Below are positions 4,968 through 35,006 of a stretch of DNA of 64,000 nucleotides, in pieces. The notes below the pieces were generated by a model that did not search any database, was not told the DNA's origin, and was given only the letters and a program-made list of their open reading frames with translations. Both the position numbers and the translations under genes were made by a program. Each line of letters begins with the position of its first letter. The first letter of the stretch is position 1. This stretch comes from an uncultured Actinomycetes bacterium (GTDB lineage: Bacteria; Actinomycetota; Thermoleophilia; UBA2241): the NCBI GenBank assembly GCA_963709345.1, contig CAVPVX010000003.1, positions 60,961-124,960 on the forward strand, given 5' to 3'.

Positions 4968-4976
4968 GGCGCTGGT

Positions 4977-5546: not shown

Positions 5547-5564
5547 GCCGTCGCCCTCCCGCAC

Positions 5565-14560: not shown

Positions 14561-14754
14561 TCATACTCCTTTGCCGTGCGCATCCGCGGCGCTCCCTCCG
14601 CCCGGCGGGCCGCCACGGACGGCCGACCCAGCCGGCACCGCGCGTCGCGTCCCGGAACAGAAGGAGCCGCGCCCGGACTGACGTCCGCGCGCGGCTCCAT
14701 TCAATCAGCTACGTCTCGCCGCGGCCAGTGGCCGGGGCGGAGTCGAAACGGCTG

Positions 14755-15876: not shown

Positions 15877-16209
15877 GACTCCTCCTCGCTCCTCATCCTG
15901 CACTTGGACTCAAGGCTTGGTGTGCGCACAGTCGCGCACGATTGGTCAGTCTAGCACAAGAGAGCGCCCAGAAAAGACCAAAACAACAAAGAACCGCGCA
16001 CTACTGAACGACATCGTGGGGGATACGCCGAGACTCGCCTTCCGAGATGTAGCTGGCGGAGATCTGGCACCGGACGGTTTGTCCAGCACGAGGCGGCGCC
16101 CTCGGCCGTCACGGGCGCACACCGGCCGGCCCGGGCGTGTGCCCTCCCTTCCTGGCTCGGGCGACACGCCTCGTATATCGTAGCCAGAAGCCAAGGAAGG
16201 AGTCACGGC

Positions 16210-17220: not shown

Positions 17221-17975
17221 ACGTCGGCGGCGCGCGCATCCTCGTCATCGGCGGCGTCCGCCGGCTCGGCGGGACGGTGGCCCGGGACCTCGCCGATCTG
17301 GGCGCCGCCGTCTGCGTGACGACGCGGACACCGGACGCCGAGGCCGACGCGCAGGTCGAAGCGCTGCGCGCCGCCGGCGCCGCCGCAGCCGCCGTCGTTT
17401 TCGGAGACGCGAGCTCGGCGCCCGGCGCCTCCCGCCTGGTCCACGACGGATCCGGCGCCCTCGGTGGACTGGACGCGCTCGTGTTCGCCGCCAGCGGTCC
17501 ATTTGCGCCCGCAGCTCCACACACCGTCTCCGAGACCACGTGGGACGCTTCGTTCGACACCGTCGCCAAGGGCTTCTTCTTCGCCGCGGCGGCGGCGCGC
17601 GGGCACCTGCTCGCCGTCAGGTCGCCAGGGGAACGGCCCGGAGGCGTGATCGTCGCCGTCACCGATCTGCTGGGGCTTCGGCCCTGGCCCGCGTTCGCCG
17701 CTCACAGCGCCGCGAAGGCGGCCCAGATCAACCTGGTCGGAGGGCTGGCGGGCGCGTGGGCGGACGACGGCATCCGCGTCTGCGGCGTGGCGCCGGGGCC
17801 CGTCGATCTCGAGGACGACGAACACCGTGACGCGACGCTTCGCGCGGCGCGTGGCGAGGTCGGGCGGCTCGTGCAGCCGCAGGACGTCGCCGCCGCGGTG
17901 CGCTTCTGCCTGGAAGATGAGGGCGTCACCGGTGTCAACATCCCTGTGGACAACGGGTCGCTGCTCGGCCGCTGA
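17217..17975 (+). CDS. SDR oxidoreductase, pteridine reductase/FolM-like
   Basis: IGGVRRLG Rossmann motif, HSAAK at YxxxK position, VAPG, VTG.NIPVDNG; GTGA overlap with upstream gene. Confidence 0.8.
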   Translation: MNVGGARILVIGGVRRLGGTVARDLADLGAAVCVTTRTPDAEADAQVEALRAAGAAAAAVVFGDASSAPGASRLVHDGSGALGGLDALVFAASGPFAPAAPHTVSETTWDASFDTVAKGFFFAAAAARGHLLAVRSPGERPGGVIVAVTDLLGLRPWPAFAAHSAAKAAQINLVGGLAGAWADDGIRVCGVAPGPVDLEDDEHRDATLRAARGEVGRLVQPQDVAAAVRFCLEDEGVTGVNIPVDNGSLLGR

Positions 17976-17983
17976 GATCAAGC

Positions 17984-18007
17984 GGGGCGGGCCCGCGAGC
18001 CCGCCCC
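17984..18007. terminator. Bidirectional hairpin
   Basis: ggggcgggc-N6-gcccgcccc between convergent genes. Confidence 0.6.
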
Positions 18008-18017
18008 AGGACCGACG

Positions 18018-19673
18018 TCAGCTCGAGGCGAGCTTGCCCTTCGTGGCCCGGTCGATGAGCTCCTTCGCCCTGAGCGCGAGCCAGAACTCCATGCGATCCT
18101 GCGAGCGGTTGAGGTCGCGGCCGGTGATCTCCTCCACACGCTTCATGCGGTACCGCAGCGTGTGACGGTGCACGTAGAGCTTCTCGGCCGCGTCGCCCCA
18201 GTGGCCGTTCGCCTCGAGGAAGCAAGCAAGGCTGCGCACGAGGTCGCTGGAGTTCTGCTCGTCGTACTCCTGAAGCCTGCCGAGGACGCTGTCGTAGAAC
18301 ACCTCGAGCGACAGCGTGTCCTGCAGGCCCAGCAGCAGCCCGTACGACCCCAGGTCATCGAAGCTGGCGATGACACCGGGCTCGCCCTTGAGCTTGCGGA
18401 TCTTGATCGCGTAACTGGCCTCGTAGTAGCTCTGACGGAGGTCGGTGAGCTGACGGTGAGGCCGGCCGATGCCGATCGAGACGGAGATCTCCGGGAGCAT
18501 CTCGCCGATCACGCCCTGCAGCTCGCCGGCGAGAGCGATCAGCGCCGGAGCGTCAAGCGCGCCGGGCTGGACGAGTACCACGACGGAGTCGCTGCGCGAC
18601 GCACTGATGAACAGGGTCTCGCGCTTCGCCATGAACTCGTCGACCGCCCAGTGCAGGCGCTCTTTGACGTCCTGGACGACGACCTCGGTGCGGTCCGGAA
18701 CGGCGTCGGGCTCCTCGTCCAGCCCGTCGATGCCCACGAGGATGATGAGGTGCGGCGACTGCGGCTCGAGCCCGAAGAAGGCTAGCCGCCTCGCTATCTC
18801 CTCCTCGTACAGGTCGCTGGCGATGAGCTCGTCGAAGAAATCGCCGGCGAGGCGCTTCTCGGTCTCGGCGACCGCCTTCTTCTTCACCAGTTCCAGCGCG
18901 GTCACGGTGACGACGTTGTGCAGGATGATGCGGTCGTACTCGCTGAAGTCGCCGCTGTCCTTGACCGCCGCGAGGAAGGCGCCGATGCGGTGCGACGCGA
19001 CCACCGGATAGACCTGCACGCCCGATCCGACGCCCTCCATGCTGAGAGCGAAGTTCTGGCGGTCGGCGCGCCGGTCGCTGATCTGGCGCCACAGGTCGGC
19101 GATGTGCTCGCCGCCCACGTGACGCCGGTAGGCGGCCTCGCAGAGGACGACGCCGTGGAAGTCGAAGAGCACGGCCGAGCAGCCGACCAGGGCCGAGAGC
19201 GTGGAGAGGATGGCCTCGAGCCCCTTCTCCTCGAGGACGATCTTGGTGAGCTTCTCGTGCACCGCGAGGCTCCGCTGCAGGAGCGAGTACTGCTCGTTCA
19301 CGATCTTCGAGGCGACCGCCTCGGTGATGGCGATGAACGGTATGTGGTACGGCACCTCGAACAGCGGGAAGTCGTACTCCTCGGCCACTCTGACCAGCGC
19401 CGGCGGGACCTTGTCGAAGCTGAAGCCGGTGCCGAAACCAAGACCGGAGATGTTGTGGTCGATCAGTTGCTTGAGCTGCTCGACCTGCTGCTCCTCCTCC
19501 CCGACGAAACCGTACCCGGTGGTCAGCAGGAGCTCACCGCCCTTGAGCCACTTGGTCGCGTCCGGGATCTCGGTGATGTGCACCCAGCGCACGGGGTTGC
19601 TGGTCGACGAGTGCCCGGCCAGCAGGCGCAGGTTGAGCTCGGAGATCTCGAGGATGTCCTGGACGGTGATCAT
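18018..19673 (-). CDS. PucR/CdaR family transcriptional regulator
   Basis: VRWVHITE, WLKGGELLLTTG N-domain; C-terminal HTH AAEKLYVHRHTLRYR. Confidence 0.93.
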   Translation of the reverse strand: MITVQDILEISELNLRLLAGHSSTSNPVRWVHITEIPDATKWLKGGELLLTTGYGFVGEEEQQVEQLKQLIDHNISGLGFGTGFSFDKVPPALVRVAEEYDFPLFEVPYHIPFIAITEAVASKIVNEQYSLLQRSLAVHEKLTKIVLEEKGLEAILSTLSALVGCSAVLFDFHGVVLCEAAYRRHVGGEHIADLWRQISDRRADRQNFALSMEGVGSGVQVYPVVASHRIGAFLAAVKDSGDFSEYDRIILHNVVTVTALELVKKKAVAETEKRLAGDFFDELIASDLYEEEIARRLAFFGLEPQSPHLIILVGIDGLDEEPDAVPDRTEVVVQDVKERLHWAVDEFMAKRETLFISASRSDSVVVLVQPGALDAPALIALAGELQGVIGEMLPEISVSIGIGRPHRQLTDLRQSYYEASYAIKIRKLKGEPGVIASFDDLGSYGLLLGLQDTLSLEVFYDSVLGRLQEYDEQNSSDLVRSLACFLEANGHWGDAAEKLYVHRHTLRYRMKRVEEITGRDLNRSQDRMEFWLALRAKELIDRATKGKLASS

Positions 19674-19777
19674 GCCGGAGATTCTACACGATGTCCTAGT
19701 ACAGCGCGAGGGTCACGGCCGGGAAACGCCGCCGGCCTTTGTACGTTCTGGCAGAGAGCAGAGGCGGCCGCGCGCCG

Positions 19778-21424
19778 TCAACGCCGCTGGAGGACGCGGC
19801 CCGGCAGGCTGCCGGTGTGCTCCCCGTCGGCGATCACGGGGTCCCCGTTGACGAACACCCAGTCGATGCCCTCAGGTGACCGGTGCGGGACATTCTCGAA
19901 GGGGAAACGATGTGGAGACGGATTGGTCGCGCGATCGCGCACGCGGTCGAGGTCGAACACGGCGATGTCGGCCTTGAGCCCCGGGCGCAGCACGCCGCGA
20001 TCGTACAGCCTGAAGCGCTGCGCGGGGAAGGACGTCATCTTGCGGATCGCTTCTTCCAGACGCAGGACGGGCTCGTCGCGCACGTAGCGCTCGAGGATCC
20101 CCGGGTACTCGCCGTAACTGCACGGCCAGTAGAGCCCGGGGTCGTCGAGTTCCTCGGGCGGCGCCATGACCAGGCCGTCGGAGCACACCATCGCCACAGG
20201 GCTCTGCAGCAGCGCCCGGATGTTGCTCTCTTCGATGTACTCGAAGATGCCGACGATCTGATCGTCTTCTTCGACGATGAGGTCGAGATAGGTATCGAAA
20301 GCGTCGGCTCCCCGCTCGGCGGCGATGTCGGCGACCGAGCGCCCTCGATACTCCGGATGGCGGCCGGCGTGGAGGATGACGATACGGTCGAAGCGGCCGT
20401 GGCGGACCACACCCGTGTAGCCGGCGCCGGGCAACTGGTCCTCGAGGACGGCGCGGCGCAGGTTCGGCCGCTCGCGCCGCTCGGCGAGCAGGGCGAGCAG
20501 GGCGTCGTGACCGAGGTCGAGGATGGGTTGCGGGAGCGCCCTCGAGAGTCTTGGCGCGAGCTCCGTGTGGACGTCGTTGTCGGTCGTGACGTCCATGCCC
20601 TCGCGCCGCGCGGCCTCGATGAGCGCCAGATTGGCGGATGCGTCCTCGGGGGCGCCCCACTTGGGCGCGTTGTGCGAGACCTCGACGGCGATCCCGGCGC
20701 GGCGGCCGATGTCGATCGCCTCGGCGACCGATGCGAGGATCGTCTCGCGTTCGCCGCGCACGTGCGACGCGTAGATGCCGTCGTAGCGGGAGACGACCCG
20801 GCACAGACGGACGATCTCCTCGGTGCCCGCGAAGCACCCCGGCGGGTACACGAGGCCGGTCGACAGACCGTGGGCGCCGGCGCGCATCGCCGCGTCGACG
20901 TGCCGCTCCATGCGCTCCAACTCACGCTCCGTGGCAGGGCGCTCGGCGAGGCCCATGACCGCGAGCCGCACCGCGCCGTGGCCGAGGAGCGGCGCGATGT
21001 TGATCGCGCCCCCCGCCCGCCCGAGCGCCGCGAGATACTGGCGGAAGCTCTTCCAGTCCCAGTCGACGCCGGAGATGTCCCAGTAGTGCCCCCAGTTGTG
21101 CAGCGCCGCCTCGCGGTGGGCGGCGCTCAGCGGAGCCGCGGACATGCCGCAGTTGCCTGTGACGTGCGTGGTGACGCCCTGCCTCACCGCCGTCTCGGCG
21201 CGCGGATGCTGCAGGATCGAGATGTCCGAGTGCGTGTGCGGGTCGACGAACCCGGGCGTCACGTAGCGGCCGTCGGCGTCGATCACCTGCCGGCCACGCA
21301 GCGACCCCGCCGCGCCGATCGCCGCGACACGGTCCCCGCGCACCCCCACGTCGGCGAAGTACCAGGGATTGCCGCAGCCGTCGACGACGCGCCCTCCCGC
21401 AATGACCACATCGTGCATGCTCAC
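19778..21424 (-). CDS. N-acyl-D-amino-acid deacylase family amidohydrolase
   Basis: VVDGCG, PGFVDPHTHSD, QGVTT.VTGNCG, GLSTGLVYPPG, SHVRGE, AIRKMTSFPA. Confidence 0.9.
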   Translation of the reverse strand: MSMHDVVIAGGRVVDGCGNPWYFADVGVRGDRVAAIGAAGSLRGRQVIDADGRYVTPGFVDPHTHSDISILQHPRAETAVRQGVTTHVTGNCGMSAAPLSAAHREAALHNWGHYWDISGVDWDWKSFRQYLAALGRAGGAINIAPLLGHGAVRLAVMGLAERPATERELERMERHVDAAMRAGAHGLSTGLVYPPGCFAGTEEIVRLCRVVSRYDGIYASHVRGERETILASVAEAIDIGRRAGIAVEVSHNAPKWGAPEDASANLALIEAARREGMDVTTDNDVHTELAPRLSRALPQPILDLGHDALLALLAERRERPNLRRAVLEDQLPGAGYTGVVRHGRFDRIVILHAGRHPEYRGRSVADIAAERGADAFDTYLDLIVEEDDQIVGIFEYIEESNIRALLQSPVAMVCSDGLVMAPPEELDDPGLYWPCSYGEYPGILERYVRDEPVLRLEEAIRKMTSFPAQRFRLYDRGVLRPGLKADIAVFDLDRVRDRATNPSPHRFPFENVPHRSPEGIDWVFVNGDPVIADGEHTGSLPGRVLQRR

Positions 21425-21438
21425 GGCTCGCCCCAGTC

Positions 21439-22548
21439 CTACATCTGGAAGATCTGGTACGAGTTCTCGCACGGCGCGCCCGCGCAGGCGTACAGGCGAC
21501 GCTCGTCGAGGTCGCAGATCATGCTGCCGACCGTCATGCCCTGCTCGGCCGGCGGCTCGCTCTCGTCCGGGTGGCCGCAGATCGCCATCTCTGGTGAGGG
21601 CTCGTGACAGCGCAGCACGCCGGCGGCGAGCGCGACGGGGTCGTCGCCGGCGGCGATGCCCTCGGCGAGCATGCGCTCCGCCGTGGCCAGGCGCACGACC
21701 GACTCCTCGTGCGCGGCTCCCTCGAAGGGCGTCATGGCCGGCGCGACGTAGTGATTGGTGTGAGCCATGAAGCCCGCCGGACTGTGGTCCATGAAGGCGT
21801 GACTCGTGGCGGAGGTCTCGACGTCCCACAGCCTCCCGCACGTGTCGGCGAGGAAGTGATTGGTGCCCCGGGCGCGGGCCGCCAGCAACCCGCGCGCCCG
21901 CGCCTCCTCGAGAGTCGGCGCATCCAGGGTCGCCCGGCGCACGAAGGCGTTGGGCACGCCGACGCGATTGTCCTTGGAGTGCACCGAGTTGCTCACGCTG
22001 GCGACGCCGTGTGAGTTCATCCCCAGCATGAGGAGATAGGGGGCGCCGGCCAGGCCCATGACACGGGTGCCGTCCGGCCCTGTGAGGTCGAACAGGACGT
22101 TGTTGACGGCGTCGATCACGTACCAGTCCATGTTGTGGCCGACGATGTGACGGCCGCCGCTGACGACCGCCACGGCCGTGCAGTGGTCGCCGCCGCGAAG
22201 CGAGCCGGGCGAGAGCGCCCGGCCGTCACCGACGGGCTCGTCGGAGGTGAACTCCTCGCCGCAGTTCGGCACGAGAACGTGGCCCAGCGGCAGGCCGGCG
22301 CCCTCGGCGAGACCCTCGAGTTCGTCCATCTGCCGCGGCAGCCGGCGGCCGGCGGCCTTGGCGTACGCAAGAGCCTCGCGCTCCGCGTCGGCGAAGGTGA
22401 GCCGTCCGCGCGTCATCGCCTCGAAGTGGTCGCGAAAAAAGGTGACCGAGGCGCGCACCTGCTCCCGTGCCGCTTCACCGACGGCGCGTCCGAGTTCCCG
22501 GTGGGAGCCTCGGGCCTGCACGTGGACGAAGGGGATGGGCGTCGTCAT
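21439..22548 (-). CDS. C45 family Ntn-hydrolase (acyl-CoA:6-APA acyltransferase-like)
   Basis: Cys nucleophile in HCTAV, GHNMD, GMNSHGV, HTNHY. Confidence 0.85.
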   Translation of the reverse strand: MTTPIPFVHVQARGSHRELGRAVGEAAREQVRASVTFFRDHFEAMTRGRLTFADAEREALAYAKAAGRRLPRQMDELEGLAEGAGLPLGHVLVPNCGEEFTSDEPVGDGRALSPGSLRGGDHCTAVAVVSGGRHIVGHNMDWYVIDAVNNVLFDLTGPDGTRVMGLAGAPYLLMLGMNSHGVASVSNSVHSKDNRVGVPNAFVRRATLDAPTLEEARARGLLAARARGTNHFLADTCGRLWDVETSATSHAFMDHSPAGFMAHTNHYVAPAMTPFEGAAHEESVVRLATAERMLAEGIAAGDDPVALAAGVLRCHEPSPEMAICGHPDESEPPAEQGMTVGSMICDLDERRLYACAGAPCENSYQIFQM

Positions 22549-22551
22549 GGC

Positions 22552-24027
22552 CTACAGCCCGAGCATTCGGCGTGGATCGGGATACTCTGCGACGCCCATG
22601 TCCGCGGCGCAACAGCCGATCAGCTCGCAGAGCGCGGCGAGCACGTCGTCGGGCAATCCCACCGGCTCGCGGTCGAGTAGCTCGGCCACTTTGTCGGAGG
22701 CGAGGTCGACCAGGCCGATACGCCCCGACGCGACCCAGTCGTTCAGACCTCCGCGGTAACTCAGCAGCGGGCTCACGAACTCGCTCCGGATGTAGCGCCG
22801 CGTGTGCTTCGTGCCGAGGAACCCGCGGCCGGACAGCACGCCGTCGACCATCGCGTCCACATCCAGCGCATCGACATCCCAAGGCCGCTGGGAGAGCGCG
22901 TACAGTGCGTTGTTCAAGACCTCGTCGTCGACGACCAGCACCTCCAGACAGCTGGCGACCCCTGCCTGGATCTCGCCGATGCCGGACAGGAGGCGCGGCC
23001 TGGCCGACAGCCCGAGCAGAGCGTTGACGATGCGCTCGTAGCCGAACTGCGCGTCGATGACCTTGCTGTCGCTGCACGGTCCGTAGCAGTCGCAAGCGAG
23101 ACCGTAGCGGCGCGCCAGCAGAACGGCGGCAACGGAGGCGACGCCGGTCTCCGGCGTGCCGCTGACGACGACGCCGCTGCGTGGGTCGACGGCGCTGAGC
23201 CGCGGACCGTAGTAGACCGGGGTGCCCGGCGCCGCGGCCTGCGCCAGCACCACGCCGGCGAGGACCTCGGCGTTCTGCTGGGCGATCGCCGCGGAGAGGG
23301 CGCCCGGCGCCGTCGTCGCGGCGGCGGGACACGGCAGGATCTCGACGGCCACGCCGCCGCGCCGCACCTGCTCGACGAGCGCGTCGGAGACGTCGCCGCC
23401 GAGGATCAGGGGGCTGACGGGGGAGAAGGCCAGGTCGATGGGATACGTGCCGCCCGAGCCGTCGGCGCCGGTGACGGCCTGCGCCATCTCCTGCAGGTAC
23501 AGCGCCTGCAGCGGATACGAGATCCCGGGCCCGCCGATCGCCTTGTCGGTCTCGTACGAGAGGACGAGATACGAATACAGCGGCTCGAGCAGGTCGGGCA
23601 CGTCCTCCGGTTGCCAGAGGGAGGTCACCTGCTGCTGATGCTGCAGGTGGTGCATGATCCGGGTGGCCAGCACCTGGTCGCGCATGGTCGCCCGGCGGCC
23701 GACGCCGGTGCGCGGGTCCGCCACATCGCGGGCGCCGCCGAGGTTGTGCACGTAGGTCGCGCCGGGATCGGGGTCCATCGCCAGCGAACGCGCGCCGTCG
23801 CGCGCCGCGAGAGTGTAGGCGCGAGGGCAGGCGGCAACGGCCTCCTCGACGACCTCCCGCGGGATGCTCAGACGGTCCGATCCGGCCGGCGTGCAGCCGG
23901 CCGCCGCCAATACCCCGGCGGCGACCGGCGACTCGACGCGCACCCCGGCTCGCTCCAACAGCGCGAGCGACGCCAGGTGCATGGCCTCGATGGCCTCCTC
24001 CGGCCAGATCCCGATGGGATCATCCAT
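22552..24027 (-). CDS. Trimethylamine methyltransferase (MttB) superfamily, non-pyrrolysine
   Basis: H.ASL.LLE..GV, SPL, ATTAPG, QQNAEVLAG, PGTPVYYG, GTPE, SDSKVIDAQ.GYE, LVVDDE, FLGTKHT; no in-frame TAG. Confidence 0.88.
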   Translation of the reverse strand: MDDPIGIWPEEAIEAMHLASLALLERAGVRVESPVAAGVLAAAGCTPAGSDRLSIPREVVEEAVAACPRAYTLAARDGARSLAMDPDPGATYVHNLGGARDVADPRTGVGRRATMRDQVLATRIMHHLQHQQQVTSLWQPEDVPDLLEPLYSYLVLSYETDKAIGGPGISYPLQALYLQEMAQAVTGADGSGGTYPIDLAFSPVSPLILGGDVSDALVEQVRRGGVAVEILPCPAAATTAPGALSAAIAQQNAEVLAGVVLAQAAAPGTPVYYGPRLSAVDPRSGVVVSGTPETGVASVAAVLLARRYGLACDCYGPCSDSKVIDAQFGYERIVNALLGLSARPRLLSGIGEIQAGVASCLEVLVVDDEVLNNALYALSQRPWDVDALDVDAMVDGVLSGRGFLGTKHTRRYIRSEFVSPLLSYRGGLNDWVASGRIGLVDLASDKVAELLDREPVGLPDDVLAALCELIGCCAADMGVAEYPDPRRMLGL

Positions 24028-24059
24028 GCGCCATCATCCCCCCCGCTGCGTGCCGGCCG

Positions 24060-25850
24060 TCATTCGTCTTCGACGGCTTTCGGCCGACGCCTGATCAGGA
24101 CGAAGGCGATGACGGCGACGACAACGACGGCGAGGACGAGGATCCAGATCCAGGTCGAACTACCGGCCGCCTCGGTCTCCGCAACCTCGGCGGGTGTCAG
24201 GTCGATGTACGTCGACCGCATGTAGTTCCAGAACGGCGCGCCGTCCGCGCCGGGGACCTGGTGGTAGCCGGTCCACTTGTCGGTGCGGAACGCCTGCAGG
24301 TTCACGTTGTACCAGAGGACGATATACGGGTTGTCCCGGTACAGGATCTTCTGCATCTCGTCGGTGACGACCTTGCGCATCGTCGGATCGTCCGGCTCCG
24401 CCGGATCCACGGCCTCGGCCTGCTCCACGTAGAGCGCGTCGTACTCGGGGTTCGAGTACTGGCTGTCGCCCCAGTTGAGGATCTGCTTGGTGGTGAAGGT
24501 GCTGAGCATGAACCCGGGGTCGATGTCGCCGCCCCAGCTCCAGATGAACATGTCGTAGTCGGCGTTGTCGTAGACCTCGTCGCCGAACGCGCCCTCGTCC
24601 TTCTGCTCCAGCTTGAGCTTGATGCCGACGTCGTCGCACCAACTGACGATCATCTTGCCGGCCGCCTGGTCCTCCGGATACTCGTTGAGCACCACGAAGC
24701 GGAACTCGAGCTTGTCGCCCTTCGCGTTCTCGCGCACGCCGTCGCCGTCGGTGTCGGTGTAGCCGGCGTCCTCGAGGATCTGCTTGGCCTTCTCGGGATC
24801 GTAGCTGTACTGCTCGGCCTCGGGGACCTCCCAGTGCCAGTCGCCCTGTGCGGGAGAGATCACCGAAGTGCCGGGGACGGCCTGGCCGGCCATCGAGGTC
24901 GCGTTCAGCGACTCCTTGTCGATCGCCCAATGCACCGCCTGGCGGATGGCGACGTCGCGCAGCAGGGGGTTACCCTTGCTCTTCGCGCTGTCCCAGCAGT
25001 TGAAGGCGAGCTCGTGGAAGCCGACCGCCGAAGACGCGACGGCTGTGGTGCCCGGAAGCTCCGCGAGGATCTTCTCGTACGTCGCCGGGAACTCGACGAT
25101 CGCGTCGAGGTTGCCGGCCTTGTAGTCCTCGATCATCGAGTCGGTGTTCTGGCTGATGATGTAGTAGATCTCCGCGATGGTCGGCGCCCCGCCGAGCTCA
25201 GCCGGGTAGTCCGGGTTCGCCTCGAGCTTCACCCACTTGCTCTTCTTGAGCTCGGCGACCTTGAAGGGCCCGGAGCCGACGAACGGCGAGTTCTTGAAGT
25301 TGTCGAGGTTCTCGGGGTCGGCCTTCTTCCAGATGTGCTCGGGGAGGATCGGGATGTAGAGAGCGAGCATGCCCGCATTGGGCTTGCGCGTCTCGATCAC
25401 GAGCGTCGTCGCATCGGGAGCCGTCACGCTGGTGACGCCGGTGAGGTACTGGATGTAGGCCCAGTGCTCGGTGTCCAGGATCAGGTTGTAAGTGAAGGCG
25501 ATGTCGGCGGCGGTGAGCGGCTTGCCGTCGTGCCAGGTCATGCCCTCACGGATGGTGAACGTCCAGGTCAGACCGTCGGGCGACGTCTCCCAACTTGTGG
25601 CGAGATCGGGCGTCGGCAGGTAGTCCTCGTCATACCAGGTGAGGAAGTTGTAGCCGAGCCGGAAGGACTCCCAGGAGATGCTGCTCCACGAGCTGAAGGG
25701 GCTCATCCCGTCGTAGTCCTGGTTGATGCCGATCCTGTAGGTGAGCGGTTCGGCGGCCGGTGACGGTGACGCGGCGGCCGGCCCCGCGGCAAGCGCGAAC
25801 AGGCACAGCGCCGCAGCGCTGATCTTCGCCGTGGTGAACCAGCGTCTCAT
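24060..25850 (-). CDS. Peptide ABC transporter substrate-binding protein (family 5) with C-terminal TM anchor
   Basis: PDLATSWE.S.DGLTWTF.IR.G..WHDG, GSGPF, DTDGDGVRE; C-terminal hydrophobic helix plus RRRPK. Confidence 0.92.
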   Translation of the reverse strand: MRRWFTTAKISAAALCLFALAAGPAAASPSPAAEPLTYRIGINQDYDGMSPFSSWSSISWESFRLGYNFLTWYDEDYLPTPDLATSWETSPDGLTWTFTIREGMTWHDGKPLTAADIAFTYNLILDTEHWAYIQYLTGVTSVTAPDATTLVIETRKPNAGMLALYIPILPEHIWKKADPENLDNFKNSPFVGSGPFKVAELKKSKWVKLEANPDYPAELGGAPTIAEIYYIISQNTDSMIEDYKAGNLDAIVEFPATYEKILAELPGTTAVASSAVGFHELAFNCWDSAKSKGNPLLRDVAIRQAVHWAIDKESLNATSMAGQAVPGTSVISPAQGDWHWEVPEAEQYSYDPEKAKQILEDAGYTDTDGDGVRENAKGDKLEFRFVVLNEYPEDQAAGKMIVSWCDDVGIKLKLEQKDEGAFGDEVYDNADYDMFIWSWGGDIDPGFMLSTFTTKQILNWGDSQYSNPEYDALYVEQAEAVDPAEPDDPTMRKVVTDEMQKILYRDNPYIVLWYNVNLQAFRTDKWTGYHQVPGADGAPFWNYMRSTYIDLTPAEVAETEAAGSSTWIWILVLAVVVVAVIAFVLIRRRPKAVEDE

Positions 25851-25897
25851 GTGGGGCTCCTTGTCATGTGCTCCACGCCCGCTCCCCGCGGGCGTCC

Positions 25898-26983
25898 CTA
25901 CTTGATCCGGATGCAGGCGGCGTAGTGGTCGCCGCCGATGTGCACGTCCGGTGGGTCGATCTCCTTGCAGGCGTCGATCGCCTCGGGGCACCGCGGGTGA
26001 AAGCGGCAGCCGGAGGGGATGTCCACCGGGTTCGGGGTCTCGCCCTTAAGGATCACGTGCTCGCGCTTCGCGAGCGGGTCCGGCACCGGGATCACGCTGA
26101 TCAGGGCCTTCGTGTACGGGTGCCGGGGGTTGGCCACGACCTCCTCGGTCTCGCCGATCTCGACGATGCGGCCCAGGTACATGACCGCGATGCGGTCGCT
26201 GATCACCCAGGCCAGCGAGAGGTCGTGGGTGATGAAGATGTAGGTGACGCCGAGCTTCTCCTTCTCCTCGACCATCAGCTTGAGGATGTCGTTACGGATC
26301 GAGACGTCGAGGCTGGCGACCGGCTCGTCGGCGACGATCATGTCCGGCTCGAGCACCGTGGCGCCGGCGATGCAGACACGCTGCCTCTGGCCGCCGGAGA
26401 GCTCGTGCGGGTAGCGATAGAGGTACTCCGTGGCCGGCCGCAGCCCGGCCTCGCTGATGGCCTTGACGACGCGCTCTTCCTTCTCGCGTTCGCTCGAGCA
26501 GACGTTGTTGACTTCGAGCGGCTCGGCGACGATGTCGAAGATCGTCTGCTTGGGATTGATCGAGTTGTAGGGGTCCTGGAAGATGATCTGCGCCTTCTTG
26601 CGGTACGCGCGCAGCGTGCGGGAGCCGAATCTCTCGACCGGCAGCCCCTTGTAGAGGATGTGGCCGCCGGTCGCCTCTTCGAGGCGCAGGAGCGCGCGAC
26701 CGGTGGTCGTCTTGCCGCAGCCCGATTCGCCGACCAGGGCGAGGATCTCGCCCTGCAGGACCTGGAAGCTGATGTGGTCGACCGCCTTGACGTACTTCTT
26801 CTCTGTCGCGACCATGCTCTTGAAGAAGCCCCGCTGGATCGGGAAGTAGACCTCGAGGTCCTTGACGTCGTACAGGACGCCGTCGGTGGTCGTCGCCGAC
26901 GCCAGGTCGCCGCTGTCGACGCTGCCCTTGACGTAGGTGTCCTTGGGGTCGGCGCTGGTCGCCGGGTCGGTGGCCATCGTCAC
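25898..26983 (-). CDS. Oligopeptide ABC transporter ATPase (OppF-like)
   Basis: [32 protein letters not shown]. Confidence 0.93.
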
Positions 26984-28011
26984 ACCCCCTTCCCGGCGTG
27001 GACGCAGCGAACGAAATGACCGCGCTCGACCTCGACGAGGCCGGGGTGGTCGGTCTCGCAGCTGGCGACCTTGTCGTCGCAGCGCGGGCAGAAGCCGCAG
27101 CCCGCCGGCGGATCCACGAGGTTCGGCGGGTCGCCCTTGATCGAGCTGACCATCTCCCGCTTCTCGTGGATATTGGGGAACGCCTTGATGAGCTGGCGTG
27201 TGTACGGGTGCGTGGCGTGGTTGAAGATGTCGGCGGTGCTGCCGCTCTCGACCACCTCGCCGGCATACATGACGACGCCCTTGTCGCAGGTCTCGGCCAT
27301 CACCGAGAGATCGTGGCTGATGAGGATGAACGAGAGGTCGAGCTCTTTGCGCAGACGCGCGATGAGCTCGAGGATCTGCGCCTGCACCATGACGTCGAGC
27401 GCGGTCGTCGGCTCGTCGCCGATGATCAGCTTGGGGTTGCAGGCCAGCGCCATGGCGATCATGGCGCGCTGGCGCATCCCGCCCGAGAGCTGGTGTGGGA
27501 AGTCCATGACGCGCTTCTGGCTGATGCCGACGAGGTCGTACAGTTCCTTGACGCGGACCATCGCCTTGCCCTCGGAGAGGCCCTCGTGCAGCTGGATGGG
27601 CTCGGCGATCTGCTTGCCGGTCTCCGTGACCGGGTTGAGCGCGTTCATCGCCCCCTGGAAGATGATGCTGATCTCCTTCCAGCGGATCTTGCTCATGCCG
27701 TACTCGGTGCGCTTGGCGAGGTTCTTGCCGTCGAACAGGACGTCGCCGGAGACGATGCGCCCGTTCTCGGGCAGCAGCTTGAGGATCGAGAGGGCCGCGG
27801 TCGTCTTGCCGCAGCCGGACTCGCCGGCGAGGCCGAGGCTCTCACCCGGAGCGAGCGTGAAGCTCACGTCCTGCACCGCCTTGACGTCGCCCACGCCGAG
27901 CCTGAAGTAGGTCGTGAGACCGCGCACGTCGAGCAAGCCCTCGTGCTCGATGCGCTCGATGGTCGTCTTCTCGGGGGCGGCGCTGGCCTTCTTGGTGGCC
28001 GTCCTGCTCAT
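26980..28011 (-). CDS. Oligopeptide ABC transporter ATPase (OppD-like)
   Basis: C-terminal part of listed ORF from ATG 28011; [28 protein letters not shown]. Confidence 0.93.
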   Translation of the reverse strand: MSRTATKKASAAPEKTTIERIEHEGLLDVRGLTTYFRLGVGDVKAVQDVSFTLAPGESLGLAGESGCGKTTAALSILKLLPENGRIVSGDVLFDGKNLAKRTEYGMSKIRWKEISIIFQGAMNALNPVTETGKQIAEPIQLHEGLSEGKAMVRVKELYDLVGISQKRVMDFPHQLSGGMRQRAMIAMALACNPKLIIGDEPTTALDVMVQAQILELIARLRKELDLSFILISHDLSVMAETCDKGVVMYAGEVVESGSTADIFNHATHPYTRQLIKAFPNIHEKREMVSSIKGDPPNLVDPPAGCGFCPRCDDKVASCETDHPGLVEVERGHFVRCVHAGKGV

Positions 28012-29600
28012 CACTCGCCCCTTTTCTCGTCGTCTTCGAACCTGCCGCCGACCCAGCCGCCGCTCTCCGGACTGCCGATAGAGCCGCCCGCAGGCTTGTT
28101 GAAGTCGGGCATGGCGTCGTCTGTCTGCTGGCCCGGCGTGAAGACGCCGGCGCCGCCGCCCAAACCGGCACCGCCGGCGACTGCTACGACCGGCTCGCCG
28201 CCTGAGGTGAAACGACTCTCGGAGACGCTGTCCTCGCGCTTGCGCAGCTTGGGATCGAGCACCTCGTCGTACGCCGTCCCGATGAAGGTGAAGGCGAGCA
28301 CGACGAAGATGATCGCGATGCCGGGCGGAAGCAGGTACCACCAGGCCGGCAGGCCGGCGGCGCCGTTGACCCAGGCGTAGTGGAGCATCGTGCCCCAGCT
28401 GAAGTTGAGAGGATCGCCGAGACCGAGGAACGAGAGCGTGGTCTCGGAGAGGATGGCGATGGCCACCACCAGAACGAGGTTGGCGAAGATCAGCGGCATC
28501 ACATTGGGCAGGACGTGCTTGCCCATGATGTGACGGTTGCTCGAGCCGATCGCCTTGGCGCGCTCGATGAACTGCAACTCGCGCACGCGCAGCACGTCGG
28601 AGCGGACCACGCGGGCAGTACCGGGCCAGCTGGTGATGCCGATGATGAGGATGATCATCCAGTAGTTCTGGCCCCAAGCGGCGGCCAGCACCATGGCCAG
28701 CGGCAACCACGGGATGACGAGGAAGGCGTCGGTGAGCCGCATCCAGCCTTCGCCCTGCCAGCCCCCATAGAAGCCTGCGGCGATGCCGATGCCGGCGCCG
28801 AGGACGGTGGACATGAAGGCCGCCAGGAGACCGACCATAAGCGAGATGCGCGCGCTCCATATGAACTGGGCGAGGACGCTCTGCCCCACCTGGTCGGTGC
28901 CGAACCAGTTGTAGTAGTCCCAGGTGGGTGGGTGGTAGGCGAGCAACAGCTCGCCTGTGTCGGGGTCGCTGATCTGCGCGTTGGGGTCGAGCAGCGCGTG
29001 GTCGGCGAGGAAAGGCGCCAGCAACGCGATCGCGAGGAAGACGATGAGGATCCCCAAACCGACCATCCCCTGCCAGTTGCGCCGGTAGAGGGTCCAGACC
29101 TGATGAGTGTTCCAGGTGGTCAGCGCCGCACGCTCGGGATTGCCCGCCGCCCAGTACCAGGCGCAGGCGCCGCCGAGAAGGACCGCCACTGTCTGCACGA
29201 GCCAGTTGTACGAGAACCCGTTGGCGCCCGCCGACCAGCCGTCGACGCCGCGGCCCGCGAGGAATGCCCAGAGGAAGAGCACGACCGACTCCACCACGAG
29301 CAGCAGGTTGAAGATCTTGGCCTTGGTCCGGCGCACGAGCCCGGCGACGCCGGCGGCGAGGCAGATGATGCCGAGCAGCACCATGACCCACGCGGGATAC
29401 GCCCCGACCGTGGGCGAGAAGAACGCGCCCACGACCTCCGAGAAGCCGGACGTGATGGGAACGTCCTTCGGGTAGGTGAGCAGCTCGAGGACGATCCACG
29501 CGACGGCCGTCCAGAAAAGGATCCAGTTCCTGAAGCGACGGGGCACGAGGGGTGCTGCTGTGGTGCCCCGCTCGATGGCGTTGGTACCGGGGGCGTTCAT
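28011..29600 (-). CDS. Oligopeptide ABC permease (OppC-like) with N-terminal membrane extension
   Basis: FGTDQVG, ARISL, ERAKAIG (EAA loop), HVLPN, LSFLGLG, SWG.ML. Confidence 0.9.
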   Translation of the reverse strand: MNAPGTNAIERGTTAAPLVPRRFRNWILFWTAVAWIVLELLTYPKDVPITSGFSEVVGAFFSPTVGAYPAWVMVLLGIICLAAGVAGLVRRTKAKIFNLLLVVESVVLFLWAFLAGRGVDGWSAGANGFSYNWLVQTVAVLLGGACAWYWAAGNPERAALTTWNTHQVWTLYRRNWQGMVGLGILIVFLAIALLAPFLADHALLDPNAQISDPDTGELLLAYHPPTWDYYNWFGTDQVGQSVLAQFIWSARISLMVGLLAAFMSTVLGAGIGIAAGFYGGWQGEGWMRLTDAFLVIPWLPLAMVLAAAWGQNYWMIILIIGITSWPGTARVVRSDVLRVRELQFIERAKAIGSSNRHIMGKHVLPNVMPLIFANLVLVVAIAILSETTLSFLGLGDPLNFSWGTMLHYAWVNGAAGLPAWWYLLPPGIAIIFVVLAFTFIGTAYDEVLDPKLRKREDSVSESRFTSGGEPVVAVAGGAGLGGGAGVFTPGQQTDDAMPDFNKPAGGSIGSPESGGWVGGRFEDDEKRGE

Positions 29601-30583
29601 GCGTGCACCCGTGGGTCGAGGTAGTAGTACGTGATGTCGGCGATGAGATTGGCGACGATCACCGCGATGCTCGCGATCAGGAACACGGCCTGCATGACTG
29701 GGTAGTCGCGCTTCTGCATCGAGTCGAAGGAGAGCAGCCCAAGCCCGGGCCAGTTGAACACACTCTCCGCGAGGATGGCCCCGGACATCACGAAGCCGAG
29801 GTTCATCATCACGATGGTGACCGTGGGCAGCATCGCGTTGGGCACCACGTGGCGCCACAGCACCTTGTTCTCGCTCAGCCCTTTGGCCCGCGCCGTGAGA
29901 GTGAAGTCCTCCTTCATCACGCCGGTGATGGAGCTGCGCATGATGAGGTGGTACTCACCGACATACGCGATCGCGAAGGTGAACGCCGGGAGGAAGAGGT
30001 GCTTGAGCAGCGACTGGATGTACGCGAACCCGCTCAGTTCGACGCCGGGCTCCTCCATGCGCCCCGTCGGGAACCAGCGCAGCTTGGTGGCGAAGAGCAT
30101 GATCATGAGAAGGCCGAACCAGAAGGTGGGCATGGCGTAGAGCACCATCCCTAAGTTCGTGGTCACGACGTCGTAGGTGCCGTTTCTTCGCCATCCGGCG
30201 AAGACGCCCGTGATCATGCCCACCACGGTAGCGAAGATGGTCCCGACCCCGACCAGAAGCACCGTGGGCCAGATGCGCTCAGCCACCACCTCGGTGACGG
30301 GGCGCTTCTCGGAGAAGGACATGCCGAACTCGCCCTTCGCCGTGTCGCGCCAGTAGTAGATGAACTGCTGCCACATGGGCTTGTCGAGGTTGAACGTCTT
30401 GCGCTGCTTCTCGATCACCGAGGGGTCCGTCTTCCCCTTGGGGAGGAGGAGCCGGGCCGGGTCGCCCGGGAGGATCCGGAAGAGCGCGAAGTTGAACGAC
30501 GCCACGAGGATGATCGTCAGAACCGCGTTCGCGATCTTTCGCAGGAAGTACCGTCGTTTGTCCACTGCACTGCGGACCGCCAC
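29597..30583 (-). CDS. Oligopeptide ABC permease (OppB-like)
   Basis: LPGDPA, LDKP..QQF, PTFW, TARAKGL, ESVFNWPGLG, RDYPV, LDPRV. Confidence 0.93.
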   Translation of the reverse strand: MAVRSAVDKRRYFLRKIANAVLTIILVASFNFALFRILPGDPARLLLPKGKTDPSVIEKQRKTFNLDKPMWQQFIYYWRDTAKGEFGMSFSEKRPVTEVVAERIWPTVLLVGVGTIFATVVGMITGVFAGWRRNGTYDVVTTNLGMVLYAMPTFWFGLLMIMLFATKLRWFPTGRMEEPGVELSGFAYIQSLLKHLFLPAFTFAIAYVGEYHLIMRSSITGVMKEDFTLTARAKGLSENKVLWRHVVPNAMLPTVTIVMMNLGFVMSGAILAESVFNWPGLGLLSFDSMQKRDYPVMQAVFLIASIAVIVANLIADITYYYLDPRVHA

Positions 30584-30913
30584 GCGCCCGGCCCCGAGCG
30601 GCGACAGGTCCTTGCCTCCTTCTCACTTCCGCGTTTGCCGAACCCCGGACACGTGCTGTTCCGCCTCACACGATGACGTGGAGGGCGTCATCGAGGTTAG
30701 ACGCAGCCGGAGTGCCGATCCGTCGGCGGTACGGCCGCACCGTCGGCGGACGTGCCGCCGGACGAGTACTACGCCGGCGTCGAGCCTCCCTCGGCGCACC
30801 GGCCCCCCTCCACTACACCCCGGCCGGCGCCGCAATCGTAATCGCCATCAGCGAGGGCGGCAAGGGAGACGAAGCTCTCGGAGACCCGAGCGCGGATAGG
30901 ACCGGCGCCGGAG

Positions 30914-32030
30914 CTATGCCCCGCCGGGCAGCCGCGCGTCGCGGCCGTACCGGCGCAGGGTCTCGACCAAGCGGTCGATCGGCAGAGCGTAGGCCACGTT
31001 ACCGTCGCGACCTACGGTCGTGTGCGCGGCGGTAAGCGCGTTGAACACACTCTCGGCGGTGGCGTCGACGGCGGCCTCGAAGAGCTCGTGCATCTGGTCG
31101 TTGGCGACCGTCGTGATCTCCAGCGGAGCGTCGGCGACACGGGGCACGCGATGAGCCGTCGTGAAGGCGACCATGATCTCACCGCTGCCGTCGGAGGCGT
31201 AGGAGCCGGTCACCGCGAGTCCCAGCGCGCACCGCTTCGCCATGCGCTCGCACTGGCGCGCGCTCAGCGGCGCATCCGTCGCCAGCACGACGATGCAGGA
31301 TCCTTCGCGATGGTCGACCGGCATCAGGTCGGCGATCTCGACGCCGACGGGGACGCCCGCCACCGACAAACGATGCCGCGTCCCGAAGTTCGTGAGTGCG
31401 AGGACACCGACCGTGTACGACGCGCCGTGCGCGACGGCGGCGCGCGACGAGGTGCCGATGCCCGCCTTGAAGTCGAAGCACGACATGCCGGTACCGGCCC
31501 CGACGCAGCCTTCGGCGACGGGGCCGGCGGCGGCTCGCGTCCAGAGCGGCCCGCACATGCTCCTCACCGACGTGCATGCCGCGCAGATCGTTGAGCAGGC
31601 CGTCGTCGCATTCCCCGACCACCGGCATGACGGCGTCCTCGATGCCGGCCCGCGGCTCGCGGTCCATCATCCAGCGGACCGCGCCGTCGTAGACCGCGCC
31701 GGCGCTCTGCGAGTTCGTGAGCAGCACCGGCGTCTCGATGACGCCCCACTCGCGAATGGCGCTGATGCCGATGACCTCGCCGACGCCGTTGGCGGCGAAG
31801 GCTCCTGCGACGACGCGCTCCTGCCAGAGGTCACCGGAGTGCGGGAAGACGGCGGTGACGCCTGTGCGGGCGGGCCCGCTGCCGTGCGGCAGATCGGGCG
31901 CGCCCCACGAGACGGTACACTGTCCGACGCGCACACCGGGCACGTCGGTGATGGCGTTCAGCGGGCCGGCCGGCAAAATGCCGATCGTGACGCCGAGGTC
32001 ACGGAGACGACAACGCGCCGGCTCGCCCAT
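30914..32030 (-). CDS. DmpA/P1 family aminopeptidase (L-aminopeptidase/D-esterase), one apparent +1 frameshift near 31536
   Basis: NAITDVPGVRVG, PVVGECDDG.LND in one frame; EGCVGAGTGM, FKAGIGTSSR, GSCIVVLATDAPL in the next. Confidence 0.88.
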
Positions 32031-32034
32031 GCGC

Positions 32035-32844
32035 CTACTCGAGGATTCCGTCGCGGTGCGCCTTCAGGTAGGCGCCGCAGAAGTTGTCCTCGCCGCGCAG
32101 CGCTTCGGTCGACTTGATCGTGGCCATCATCTGCTTGTTGCGCACGTCGACGATGAGCCCGTCGAGGCCGAGGCCGGCGCACATGGCGACGAAGGTGCGG
32201 TTGAGCAGGGCGCGGTTCGGCAGGCCGAAGCTGACGTTGCTGAGACCGCCGGTGGTACGCACGGACAGACGCTCCTTGACCAGCTTGAGCGTATCCATGG
32301 TGACCATGGGCGCGCACGGGTCGGCGGACACGGCCATGACCAGTGGGTCGACCCAGAGATCCTCGGTCGGCAGGCCGGCGCCGGTGAAGAGGTCGTAGAT
32401 CTGCTGCGCGACCTCGAAACGGTCCTCTGCCGTCGGCGGGATGCCGTCGTCGTTCATGCAGAGGCCGACGACGGGGCACTTGTACTTCTCGACCTGCGGG
32501 ATGACGGCGTCGATGCGCGCCTGCTCGCTGCTGATCGAGTTGATGAACGGCACCTTGCCGCCGTCCTGTGATGCACGCCTCGACGCCCACGGTCGAGCGC
32601 GTCGGGCTGGCGGAGTCGACCATGAGCTGCGTGTCGGTGACGCCGCATGACCATCATCGATGAGCCAGACGATGTCGTCGTCCTCGTCGCCGCCGGCGAC
32701 GCCGCCGTTGACGTCGAGGATGCCTGGCGCCGGCCTCGACCTGCTCCGGTAGCGAGAGCCTTGATGAACTCGGCATCGCGCGTTCTGGATCGCCTCTCCG
32801 ACCTGCTTGCGCGTCCCGTTGATCGATTCACCCATCAACAACAT
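32035..32844 (-). CDS. Methyltetrahydrofolate:corrinoid methyltransferase (AcsE/MtgA-like pterin-binding protein); several apparent single-base insertions
   Basis: MGESINGTRK, LDVNGG, INSIS, VDPLV, GLSNVSFGLPNR..LN; GGAGGT RBS. Confidence 0.85.
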   Translation of the reverse strand: MLLMGESINGTRKQVGEAIQNARCRVHQGSRYRSRSRPAPGILDVNGGVAGGDEDDDIVWLIDDGHAASPTRSSWSTPPARRARPWASRRASQDGGKVPFINSISSEQARIDAVIPQVEKYKCPVVGLCMNDDGIPPTAEDRFEVAQQIYDLFTGAGLPTEDLWVDPLVMAVSADPCAPMVTMDTLKLVKERLSVRTTGGLSNVSFGLPNRALLNRTFVAMCAGLGLDGLIVDVRNKQMMATIKSTEALRGEDNFCGAYLKAHRDGILE

Positions 32845-32959
32845 TGAACCACCTCCACGAGGCATGACCCGGGACGGCGTCAGGTAGGAGTGATATGCGA
32901 TGGCGTCGCGCCGAAGAAACGGCGCAGGCTCGAGGAGCCAGCCGCGGGTCGGCGCCGGA

Positions 32960-33198
32960 TCAGCGCTCGGAGGGAACACCCAGTCGGGACGCTCCCGACG
33001 CCGGTCCCCGGACGGCGCTCGTCGTTGCCGAGGCCGGCGGCCGCACGACGACGCTCGCCGACCCGCCGATCCTTGACGACCTGCACGTCGCTCCGACCGG
33101 AGAACAGCGCGCGAGAACGCTCGTACAGACCGGTCGCGTCACGGCCCGGTGACGATCAGGAGGTGAGTCCGCGGCGTTGTCGCCTTCGAAGTCATCAT
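32960..33198 (-). CDS. Small Arg-rich hypothetical protein (DRR/ERR repeats), frameshifted in this assembly
   Basis: Stitched translation MMTSKATTPRTHLLIVT..RDATGLYE..ALFSGRSDVQVVKDRRVGERRR...DERRPG.RRRERPDWVFPPSA*; TACAGT -10 six nt before ATG. Confidence 0.55.
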
Positions 33199-33285
33199 GC
33201 TCGGACTGTACCCGACAACGCGGTGTCTGCTGCAGACACTCGTCTGCTCCGTCCGCCGCTGCGGCGCGTCAGTGCACCGAGAGAA

Positions 33286-33317
33286 GCGGCGGGCGGGCCT
33301 TGAGGCCCGCCCGCCGC
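33286..33317 (-). terminator. groESL terminator
   Basis: 15-bp stem gcggcgggcgggcct/aggcccgcccgccgc followed by TTCTCT on minus strand. Confidence 0.75.
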
Positions 33318-33362
33318 CGACGCGACAGAGTCTCGCTCCTTCGTAGCTCTAGCTCTGGTGGA

Positions 33363-35006
<1,644 letters not shown>

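Follow-up and report, generated by a model that had tools for sequence, protein, structure and literature searches.

The window analysed here, a 64,000-nucleotide (nt) stretch of high GC content (65-75%), corresponds to positions 60961-124960 of contig C3 in the 11-contig, 3.1-Mb genome (98% complete) of an uncultured Actinomycetes bacterium of the class Thermoleophilia. It contains, at 18018-32844, a cluster in which a methyltransferase of the MttB superfamily is embedded among the genes of a peptide-type importer and of amide hydrolases. An earlier annotation made from the sequence (the original prediction) had proposed that this cluster imports, hydrolyses and demethylates N-methylated or D-amino-acid peptides under anaerobic conditions. 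Profile searches with Pfam and NCBIfam bore out the genes that it had named and their common strand; all eleven cluster genes, from PucR to MeTr, lie on the minus strand, as follows.

32035..32844, minus strand: MeTr, probable methyl-corrinoid:tetrahydrofolate methyltransferase of the MtgA/MtqA/AcsE type (Pterin_bind, 35.9 bits)
30914..32030, minus strand: DmpA-type aminopeptidase, Peptidase_S58 (profile positions 1-137 and 133-306 in two frames)
30584..30913, minus strand: DmpA/oppB intergenic region, 330 nt
29597..30583, minus strand: oppB-type permease (BPD_transp_1, 139.6 bits; Opp2B/Opp4B-like, under equivalog cut-offs)
28011..29600, minus strand: oppC-type permease (OppC_N and BPD_transp_1)
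26980..28011, minus strand: oppD-type ATPase (ABC_tran and oligo_HPY; PRK09473, 317.9 bits)
25898..26983, minus strand: oppF-type ATPase (ABC_tran and oligo_HPY; PRK11308, 344.7 bits)
24060..25850, minus strand: family-5 solute-binding protein (SBP) with signal peptide (SBP_bac_5, 281.5 bits)
22552..24027, minus strand: MttB, non-pyrrolysine MttB-superfamily methyltransferase (P0001; PF06253, 207.9 bits)
21439..22548, minus strand: C45-family autoproteolytic N-terminal-nucleophile (Ntn) acyltransferase/hydrolase (NF040521, 173.6 bits, cut-off 85; AAT, 61.8 bits)
19778..21424, minus strand: Amidohydro_3 deacylase of the D-aminoacylase type, N-acyl-D-amino-acid deacylase family (matches to PDB 1M7J and 3GIP)
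18018..19673, minus strand: PucR-family regulator (PF07905, 122.9 bits; GGDEF_2, HTH_30)

The short gaps given in the original prediction were all correct: 4 nt between MeTr and DmpA, 32 nt between SBP and MttB, 3 nt between MttB and C45, and 14 nt between C45 and the deacylase, the last being 14 nt from a GTG start at 21424 or 20 nt from an ATG start at 21418. The oppB, oppC, oppD and oppF genes overlap by 1-4 nt, and gaps of 47 and 104 nt separate oppF from SBP and the deacylase from PucR, respectively; oppB through the deacylase form one co-directional run with overlaps or gaps of at most 47 nt. The view of all these genes as a single run held with respect to the shared strand and the short gaps, but the 330-nt gap parts MeTr-DmpA from the run between oppB and the deacylase, and the cluster is therefore probably made up of two transcription units plus PucR. 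A promoter and terminator scan of 17800-33500 returned no promoter-like site and three terminator-like sites, no more than in shuffled sequences, none of which fell between cluster genes on the correct strand. Rfam gave no match in the cluster when the whole window was scanned, and the 330-nt gap had none even with E values as high as 1 allowed. Leader alignments of 33 and 26 relatives revealed, in this gap, a block of about 45 nt (about 30605-30649, minus strand) that is nearly invariant across more than 20 relatives and holds a strong Shine-Dalgarno-like sequence, GAAGGAGG, about 35 nt upstream of the assumed GTG start of oppB. This block is probably a promoter, operator or ribosome-binding region of the unit running from opp to the deacylase; alternatively, the gene call may be off, either in the start of oppB or in a short leader. 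The consensus fold of the oppB leader (26 sequences) comprised 7 pairs at -4.6 kcal/mol with one compensatory pair, and a structured RNA was unsupported.

The MttB gene product matched PF06253 at 207.9 bits against a cut-off of 25, over profile positions 32-492 of 500. It belongs to the same fold family as the pyrrolysine-containing MttB of Methanosarcina barkeri (7XCL/7XCM/7XCN; profile E 8e-51 over residues 6-474), but its frame is free of internal stops and contains no in-frame TAG, and Cys318 stands at the position of the pyrrolysine (Pyl334) of the M. barkeri enzyme (7XCL). Its score against the pyrrolysine equivalog TIGR02369 was 244.9 bits (cut-off 525), and the enzyme is not of the pyrrolysine type, in agreement with the non-pyrrolysine label of the original prediction. 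A search against 1.84 billion representatives clustered at 50% identity gave 4017 proteins with E <=0.001, among which the nearest full-length relatives were 52, 50, 48, 48 and 45% identical and the next at most 38%. The phylogenetic placement, which the original prediction had proposed as a check, gave a strongly supported clade: in a tree of 56 rows, including 33 other paralogues from the same genome, MttB fell in a clade of 10 (Shimodaira-Hasegawa-like approximate likelihood ratio test, SH-aLRT, 100) that contained none of these 33 paralogues and was separate both from the seven full-length TAG-containing paralogues, which formed their own clade, and from an MtgB-like pair. Its sister group, with a support of 96, consisted of 13 P0135-type representatives, hereafter the sister clade.

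At the substrate-binding positions MttB differs from every characterised member, in keeping with the distinction that the original prediction had drawn between this enzyme and those acting on free quaternary amines. Passages of a paper on MtgB name Y97 and F356 (cation-pi) and R312 and H348 (carboxylate) as its glycine-betaine residues, and give R312 as conserved in all characterised members, where it probably salt-bridges acidic substrates (PMC13080624). None of these four ligands is retained in the window MttB: Y97 is replaced by G98 in the profile alignment or L96 in the pairwise alignment, R312 by D313, H348 by S348 and F356 by G356. D313 is invariant in 29 MttB orthologues, and the R312 position is occupied by D, N or S in all seven sister-clade sequences aligned. 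A paralogue in the same genome (C10:60450), which scored 242 bits against MtgB, compared with 142 bits for the window MttB, retains R, H and F; the residue mapping therefore detects the motif where it is present. Three small pocket residues together with Asp in place of Arg suggest a larger substrate that has no carboxylate, as far as aligned residues can inform on the pocket. A metal site formed by C312, C314 and C318 ('ACDCYGPC') was also considered and dropped, these residues being near-invariant or invariant in orthologues but variable in the wider clade.

The importer is complete for the Opp/Dpp type, with two permeases, two ATPases carrying an oligo_HPY tail and a family-5 binding protein; as none of its components reached the NCBIfam equivalog cut-off, family membership does not fix the ligand class. 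OppC is unusual for such a permease at both ends: some 150 residues, with several additional hydrophobic segments among them, extend its N-terminus, and its C-terminus runs out in a Gly-rich tail of roughly 70 residues. The SBP is one of six paralogues in the genome, of which the other five are 36-41% identical and lack permeases; other opp-like permeases in the genome reach at most 33% identity, and the six SBPs appear to be served by a single Opp translocator of this type.

All three hydrolases proved to be clear members of their families, with catalytic motifs present, when compared with 1M7J (Alcaligenes faecalis DA1), 1B65/2DRH/3N2W (S58) and 2X1D (C45 isopenicillin-N acyltransferase); the amide bonds attacked by the D-aminoacylase, S58 and C45 families are N-acyl or N-terminal ones, among them bonds of D- or beta-amino acids. 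The deacylase matched 1M7J at E 3e-79 and 3GIP at E 1e-67, and its motifs DPHTH, TGNCG, SHVR, VSH and SDG align with those of 1M7J, relative to which it carries an insert of about 65 residues; the earlier 'D-aminoacylase' label is thus justified as a family assignment. The HxH, Cys, His, His and Asp of these motifs we take to be metal ligands. The window C45 is only distantly related to the fungal 2X1D enzyme (E 9e-8), and its 'DH-CTA' aligns with the 'DG-CTT' of 2X1D, where Gly-Cys is presumably the self-cleavage site, so that the Cys nucleophile is present. Judged by these metal-ligand motifs and this nucleophile, the deacylase and C45 look active. The genome contains a single copy of the deacylase and of DmpA, and one further C45 gene that lies away from any MttB. 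PucR-type regulators are typically catabolic activators, and PucR is probably the activator of the cluster. A role for it as an AdeR-like regulator of the alanine dehydrogenase gene nearby was considered unlikely: one related locus (L033) keeps PucR next to MttB, with ald 3.7 kb off behind its own AsnC-type regulator.

The two genes at the far end of the cluster required closer reading. MeTr scored 214 bits against NCBIfam PRK07535 (cut-off 259), the analogue in a sister-clade locus (L100) scoring 291.5 bits, and comparison with four intact orthologues revealed about six net inserted bases in the window gene that produce two out-of-frame stretches. The DmpA gene switches frame near 31534, and no single open frame spans the S58 profile; in all six relatives tested (L008, L024, L025, L026, L032 and L038) DmpA lies in one open frame, and the orthologue in L024 matched a Pyrococcus D-aminopeptidase (PDB 2DRH) at 1.6e-97 and DmpA (1B65) at 1.5e-70. 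In L032 (3271-5175) MeTr and DmpA read as a continuous 635-residue open frame, which is either a fusion or an assembly artefact. Public sequencing runs were searched for the MeTr-DmpA stretch, and none covered it, the best run containing a fraction of 0.10 of the sampled words. Across the genome, at least 12 sets of MttB-family matches have adjoining profile parts in adjoining open reading frames (C2:330290-333210 and C10:13844-15245 are examples), a pattern that indicates either an assembly prone to indels or a broad decay of the expanded family. No second MeTr was found in the genome, and for this reason we favour assembly errors over decay as the cause of the MeTr and DmpA disruptions.

The only other PF00809 (Pterin_bind) match in the genome is FolP, contained in a folE-folP-folB-folK folate biosynthesis operon at 3208-5564 (minus strand) of the window, and no MtrH was found in the genome. 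PF06253 matches number 64 in 3.1 Mb, nine of them with an in-frame TAG, and the 34 long ones were aligned. With one MeTr for 64 MttB-family matches, MeTr is therefore a shared hub and not a dedicated component of the pathway in which the original prediction had placed it. The same annotation had named a corrinoid protein as the methyl carrier of the characterised enzymes, and there is no corrinoid gene in the cluster: no PF02310 match was found on contig C3, and 24 B12-domain matches were found elsewhere in the genome, several of the PF02310 matches among these regions sitting in open frames of 212-264 aa. The methyl-transfer machinery is present in trans, in the form of these 24 B12-binding matches and one RamA-type activase.

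The conservation of the neighbourhood, on which the original prediction had staked its case, was evident from 45 related loci. The record titles of 44 of these name Thermoleophilia, Actinomycetes or Actinomycetota, and one 3.3-kb contig is labelled Deltaproteobacteria. Counting only loci with room for the gene in question, 42 of 43 have C45 immediately after MttB, and the deacylase was retained in 40 of 42, PucR in all 37, oppF in 38 of 39, oppB in 35 of 36, DmpA in 31 of 32, MeTr in all 31 and SBP in 30 of 41. PucR stands beside MttB also in L044, of only 48% identity, and in L033, the locus without hydrolases. Two loci (L017 9027-13425 and L023 11638-15832) carry, between the deacylase and PucR, an additional SBP (39-41% identity) together with an additional MttB from the same clade, which is 52-53% identical and has the motif GLACDCYGLATD. 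This arrangement suggests a joint diversification of SBP and MttB.

Support for the coupling that is more independent of lineage than any other came from the sister clade. The metagenome scan, with an alignment of 4 sequences as the query, yielded a sample of 80 loci with P0135-type MttBs, which are 34-40% identical to the window MttB and lie on contigs of GC 0.42-0.69. The upstream same-strand neighbour of these MttBs was Peptidase_S9 in 35 of 54 loci, C45 in 3 and M24 in 1, and in the rest another MttB (4), SBP5 (2), OppF (1) or other or unassigned genes (8). Downstream, Peptidase_M20 was found in 37 of 55 loci and SBP5 in 14, the remaining 4 including an AstE/aspartoacylase-type enzyme. Where the flank extended for 5 kb or more (37 loci), Opp or SBP was present in 28 loci and MeTr in 13, and the usual layout was SBP-OppBCDF-S9-MttB-M20-MeTr. 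The M20 enzyme of L100 belongs to TIGR01891 'amidohydrolase', an N-acyl-amino-acid subfamily (343 bits, cut-off 153.75), and its closest structures are ILR1-like, YxeP and N-acyl-glutamine aminoacylase; on both grounds we regard it as the L-type analogue of the window D-aminoacylase. The best NCBIfam names for the sister S9 enzymes were TolB-propeller and Dpp5, both below cut-off. In L141, an AsnC-C45-MttB-SBP-OppBCDF operon diverges from one with corrinoid protein-MttB-MttB-Amidohydro_3 (53%). With gene orders and peptidase families that differ and GC values that range so widely, functional coupling accounts for the partnership better than inherited synteny does, and the association of MttB with an importer and amide hydrolases is, judged from gene context, more than chance.

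Paralogous clusters revealed similar combinations. The genome that contains L033 (G401) holds three further clusters: SBP-OppBCDF-deacylase (55% identity), divergent from an MttB; SBP-OppBCDF-MttB (28% identity); and SBP-C45-...-amidase-SBP-Amidohydro_3. Importer, MttB paralogues and amidases have thus been combined repeatedly, and the grouping of MttB, Opp/SBP5, amide hydrolases and MeTr described in the original prediction recurs both in these clusters and, with non-homologous peptidases, in the sister clade. Two further loci of the window genome concern the orphan binding proteins. At C1:108923-112245 (L047 5936-9252) an MttB of another clade overlaps the start of a second SBP5 gene, with a GNAT acetyltransferase gene ahead of them, in what seems to be a further SBP-MttB module without its own permease. 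At C7:220953-224730 (L048 6953-10730) an orphan SBP5 gene is divergent from a B12-binding protein gene that is followed by a URO-D (MtaA/MtbA-like) methyltransferase gene, with a DUF1638/PAS/GGDEF protein encoded nearby.

Among known systems, MtgB-MtgC-MtgA of Desulfitobacterium hafniense (PDB 2QNE, 9YCE) belongs to the same superfamily (phmmer E 3e-40, profile E 1e-50), is likewise non-pyrrolysine and paired with a pterin-binding methyltetrahydrofolate methyltransferase, and presumably uses the same route of the methyl group to Co(I)-corrinoid and on to tetrahydrofolate. In contrast to MtgB, the window MttB has none of the four ligands, falls in a separate clade, lacks an adjacent corrinoid protein and is embedded in an operon of a peptide-type importer and amide hydrolases. 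MtpB, MtcB, MtyB and MthB of Eubacterium limosum share one corrinoid protein and one tetrahydrofolate methyltransferase. The window genome resembles this hub-and-spoke organisation, in which many MttB paralogues feed few shared components, with 64 MttB-family matches and 24 B12-domain matches to one MeTr and one RamA-type activase. Passages of the MtgB paper list five characterised non-pyrrolysine members (MtgB, MtpB, MtcB, MtyB and MthB), with free acidic quaternary amines as substrates (PMC13080624). Unlike the E. limosum enzymes, which bind acidic amines through R312, the window clade and its sister have Asp, Asn or Ser at this position and peptidase genes at their flanks. A different parallel is offered by N-terminally blocked peptides, which are degraded by acylaminoacyl-peptidase (S9) and then aminoacylase (M20). 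The sister MttB is flanked by these same two families, the identity of its S9 enzyme as an acylaminoacyl-peptidase being putative, and C45, D-aminoacylase and DmpA would be their functional analogues in the window cluster; the proposed block differs from that of the S9-M20 route in being N-methylation, removed by B12 chemistry.

The gene content of the cluster, its tight spacing, the recurrence of the partnership and the divergence of the pocket were all observed, and with moderate confidence we read the locus as one for the substrate-inducible catabolism of a small N-methylated compound whose methylated amine is in amide (peptide-like) linkage. The family-5 binding protein and OppBCDF would import the compound, and PucR would turn the unit on. 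C45, the D-aminoacylase-type deacylase and, from the neighbouring unit, DmpA would cut N-acyl or N-terminal amide bonds that may be poorly handled by ordinary peptidases, which need a free alpha-amine. The MttB homologue would hand the N-methyl to a corrinoid protein whose gene lies in another part of the genome, and the single MeTr of the genome would pass the methyl on to tetrahydrofolate. Since the carboxylate-binding Arg is lost across the whole peptidase-linked clade pair, we prefer a version in which MttB would act on the amide-linked form, with no carboxylate next to the methylated nitrogen, and in which demethylation would unblock the N-terminus for hydrolysis. The substrate class, the order of the steps and every activity in this scheme are what we infer. 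The interpretation given in the original prediction is thus partly supported: the coupling, the conservation and the non-pyrrolysine MttB stand, but MeTr proved to be a shared hub, MeTr-DmpA form a separate unit, and the cluster has no corrinoid protein. More tentatively, we suggest as a possibility that this clade and its sister may be the first MttB-superfamily enzymes to act on peptides or amides, using B12 chemistry to demethylate N-terminally methylated, still amide-linked residues, which would unblock hydrolysis and feed folate.

Several observations weigh against such a reading. MeTr and DmpA are disrupted in the window assembly, and in 11 of 41 loci no SBP separates oppF from MttB. Conservation extends to the flanking genes for alanine dehydrogenase (27 of 34 loci) and a beta-lactamase-like protein (29 of 35), and synteny within the lineage is therefore in part inertia and by itself weak evidence. 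L033 keeps MeTr-SBP-MttB-PucR without Opp, DmpA, C45 or deacylase alongside, the nearest C45 (47%) and deacylase (57%) being elsewhere in its genome; L032 lacks the deacylase and SBP at the locus, and its genome gave no deacylase match with the window deacylase as query. MttB, C45 and the deacylase are all missing from a 1.8-Mb genome of the same genus. Distant C45 homologues (28-34% identity, tblastn) were found in 36 genomes of a 401-genome phylum sample, in a tally that takes in the unpublished genomes G088 (the source of locus L069) and G120; an MttB lay within 1.5 kb of such a C45 in none of 29 loci, and SBP5 in 7 of 29, and C45 alone therefore does not predict MttB. The sister loci are mutually related (61-90% to P0135) and their taxa are unassigned, so they do not represent 80 independent events, and family-5 binding proteins in the PDB list also bind nickel, opines, haem and sugars.

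The last of these points bears on the possibility that the substrate of MttB is a free and non-acidic small molecule, either a methylamine or betaine-like, imported as such by SBP5/Opp, the hydrolases serving another substrate, such as D-amino-acid or cell-wall peptides taken up by the same importer, or only the demethylated product. SBP and MttB do move as a pair (the overlap in L047, the second module in L017 and L023, and MeTr-SBP-MttB-PucR in L033), one Opp translocator seems to serve six SBPs, many non-peptide ligands are known for SBP5 proteins, and DmpA, D-aminoacylase and C45 would alone form a coherent set for the salvage of D-peptides or N-acyl-amino acids. We consider this explanation unlikely, however, as it leaves unexplained both the direct flanking of two MttB clades by unrelated amide-hydrolase families and the presence of C45 beside MttB in 42 of 43 loci. 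The expanded MttB family raises the question of mere neighbourhood: 64 PF06253 matches in 3.1 Mb make an MttB beside anything unsurprising, and the shared MeTr, a single hub gene, could together with Opp be a 'landing pad' for independent MttB/SBP modules and unrelated peptidase genes. The variability of the modules (SBP absent from 11 of 41 loci, extra SBPs and MttBs inserted, L033 without hydrolases) and the conserved flanking synteny would be consistent with this; the operon-like spacing of 3, 14 and 32 nt, the restriction of the hydrolase families to this locus in the genome, save one other C45 away from MttB, and the recurrence of the partnership on GC-diverse contigs with other gene orders and peptidase families argue against it, and we hold it to be decidedly unlikely.

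That MttB is no catabolic N-demethylase at all, and either methylates an imported or exported peptide-like product or has lost methyl-transfer chemistry, seems highly improbable. All four MtgB substrate residues and pyrrolysine are missing, the corrinoid protein is not adjacent, and a literature search found no characterised member of the MttB clade, all of which speaks for it; against this, a MeTr gene accompanies MttB in all 31 loci of the lineage with room for it and in 13 of the 37 sister-clade loci with long flanks, L141 has a corrinoid protein in its divergent operon, and the context is one of importer, hydrolases and PucR-type regulator, without biosynthetic genes.

Outside the cluster, the beta-lactamase-like gene, of the class A type, is found immediately beyond PucR on the other strand (16210-17220, plus strand); it scored 201.6 bits against Beta-lactamase2 and 149.4 bits against NCBIfam bla_class_A, whose cut-off is 200. 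Genes for an aldehyde:ferredoxin oxidoreductase (AFOR_N and AFOR_C) and the alanine dehydrogenase flank the cluster at 12821-15903 (minus strand) and are syntenic in most relatives; the former is consistent with an anaerobic lifestyle. A glmS ribozyme/riboswitch was detected at 56265-56437 (minus strand; 82.9 bits, gathering score 37).

The original prediction knew of no described pathway of this kind, and a literature search (supplements not covered) likewise found no paper describing MttB linked to peptide import or peptidases, nor one linking D-aminoacylase, DmpA or C45 enzymes to a corrinoid methyltransferase. We regard the locus as a probable corrinoid-dependent methylamine:tetrahydrofolate system with a new clade in a new context, and probably with a new substrate class. 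We take the window lineage to belong to the RBG-16-64-13 group, and the source organisms appear to be abundant anaerobic methylotrophs. According to passages of a study of a thawing-permafrost mire, the Actinobacteriota genus RBG-16-64-13 is among the most active bacterial methylotrophs there, and Actinobacteriota at that site express pyrrolysine and non-pyrrolysine methyltransferase genes; the same passages are silent on this cluster (PMC10805028). The partnership of MttB here and in the sister clade points to a route, as yet undescribed, by which methylated compounds of a peptide-like kind would be consumed, and a well-populated clade pair that is systematically wired to peptide-type importers and to hydrolases of N-acyl or N-terminal amides, and that lacks the carboxylate-binding Arg, offers a concrete candidate for a new substrate class of B12-dependent demethylation. 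If these MttBs do act on peptides or amides, anaerobes could draw one-carbon units and nitrogen from N-methylated peptides and related natural products, and methylated peptides would join betaines and methylamines as a methyl source in wetland carbon cycling.

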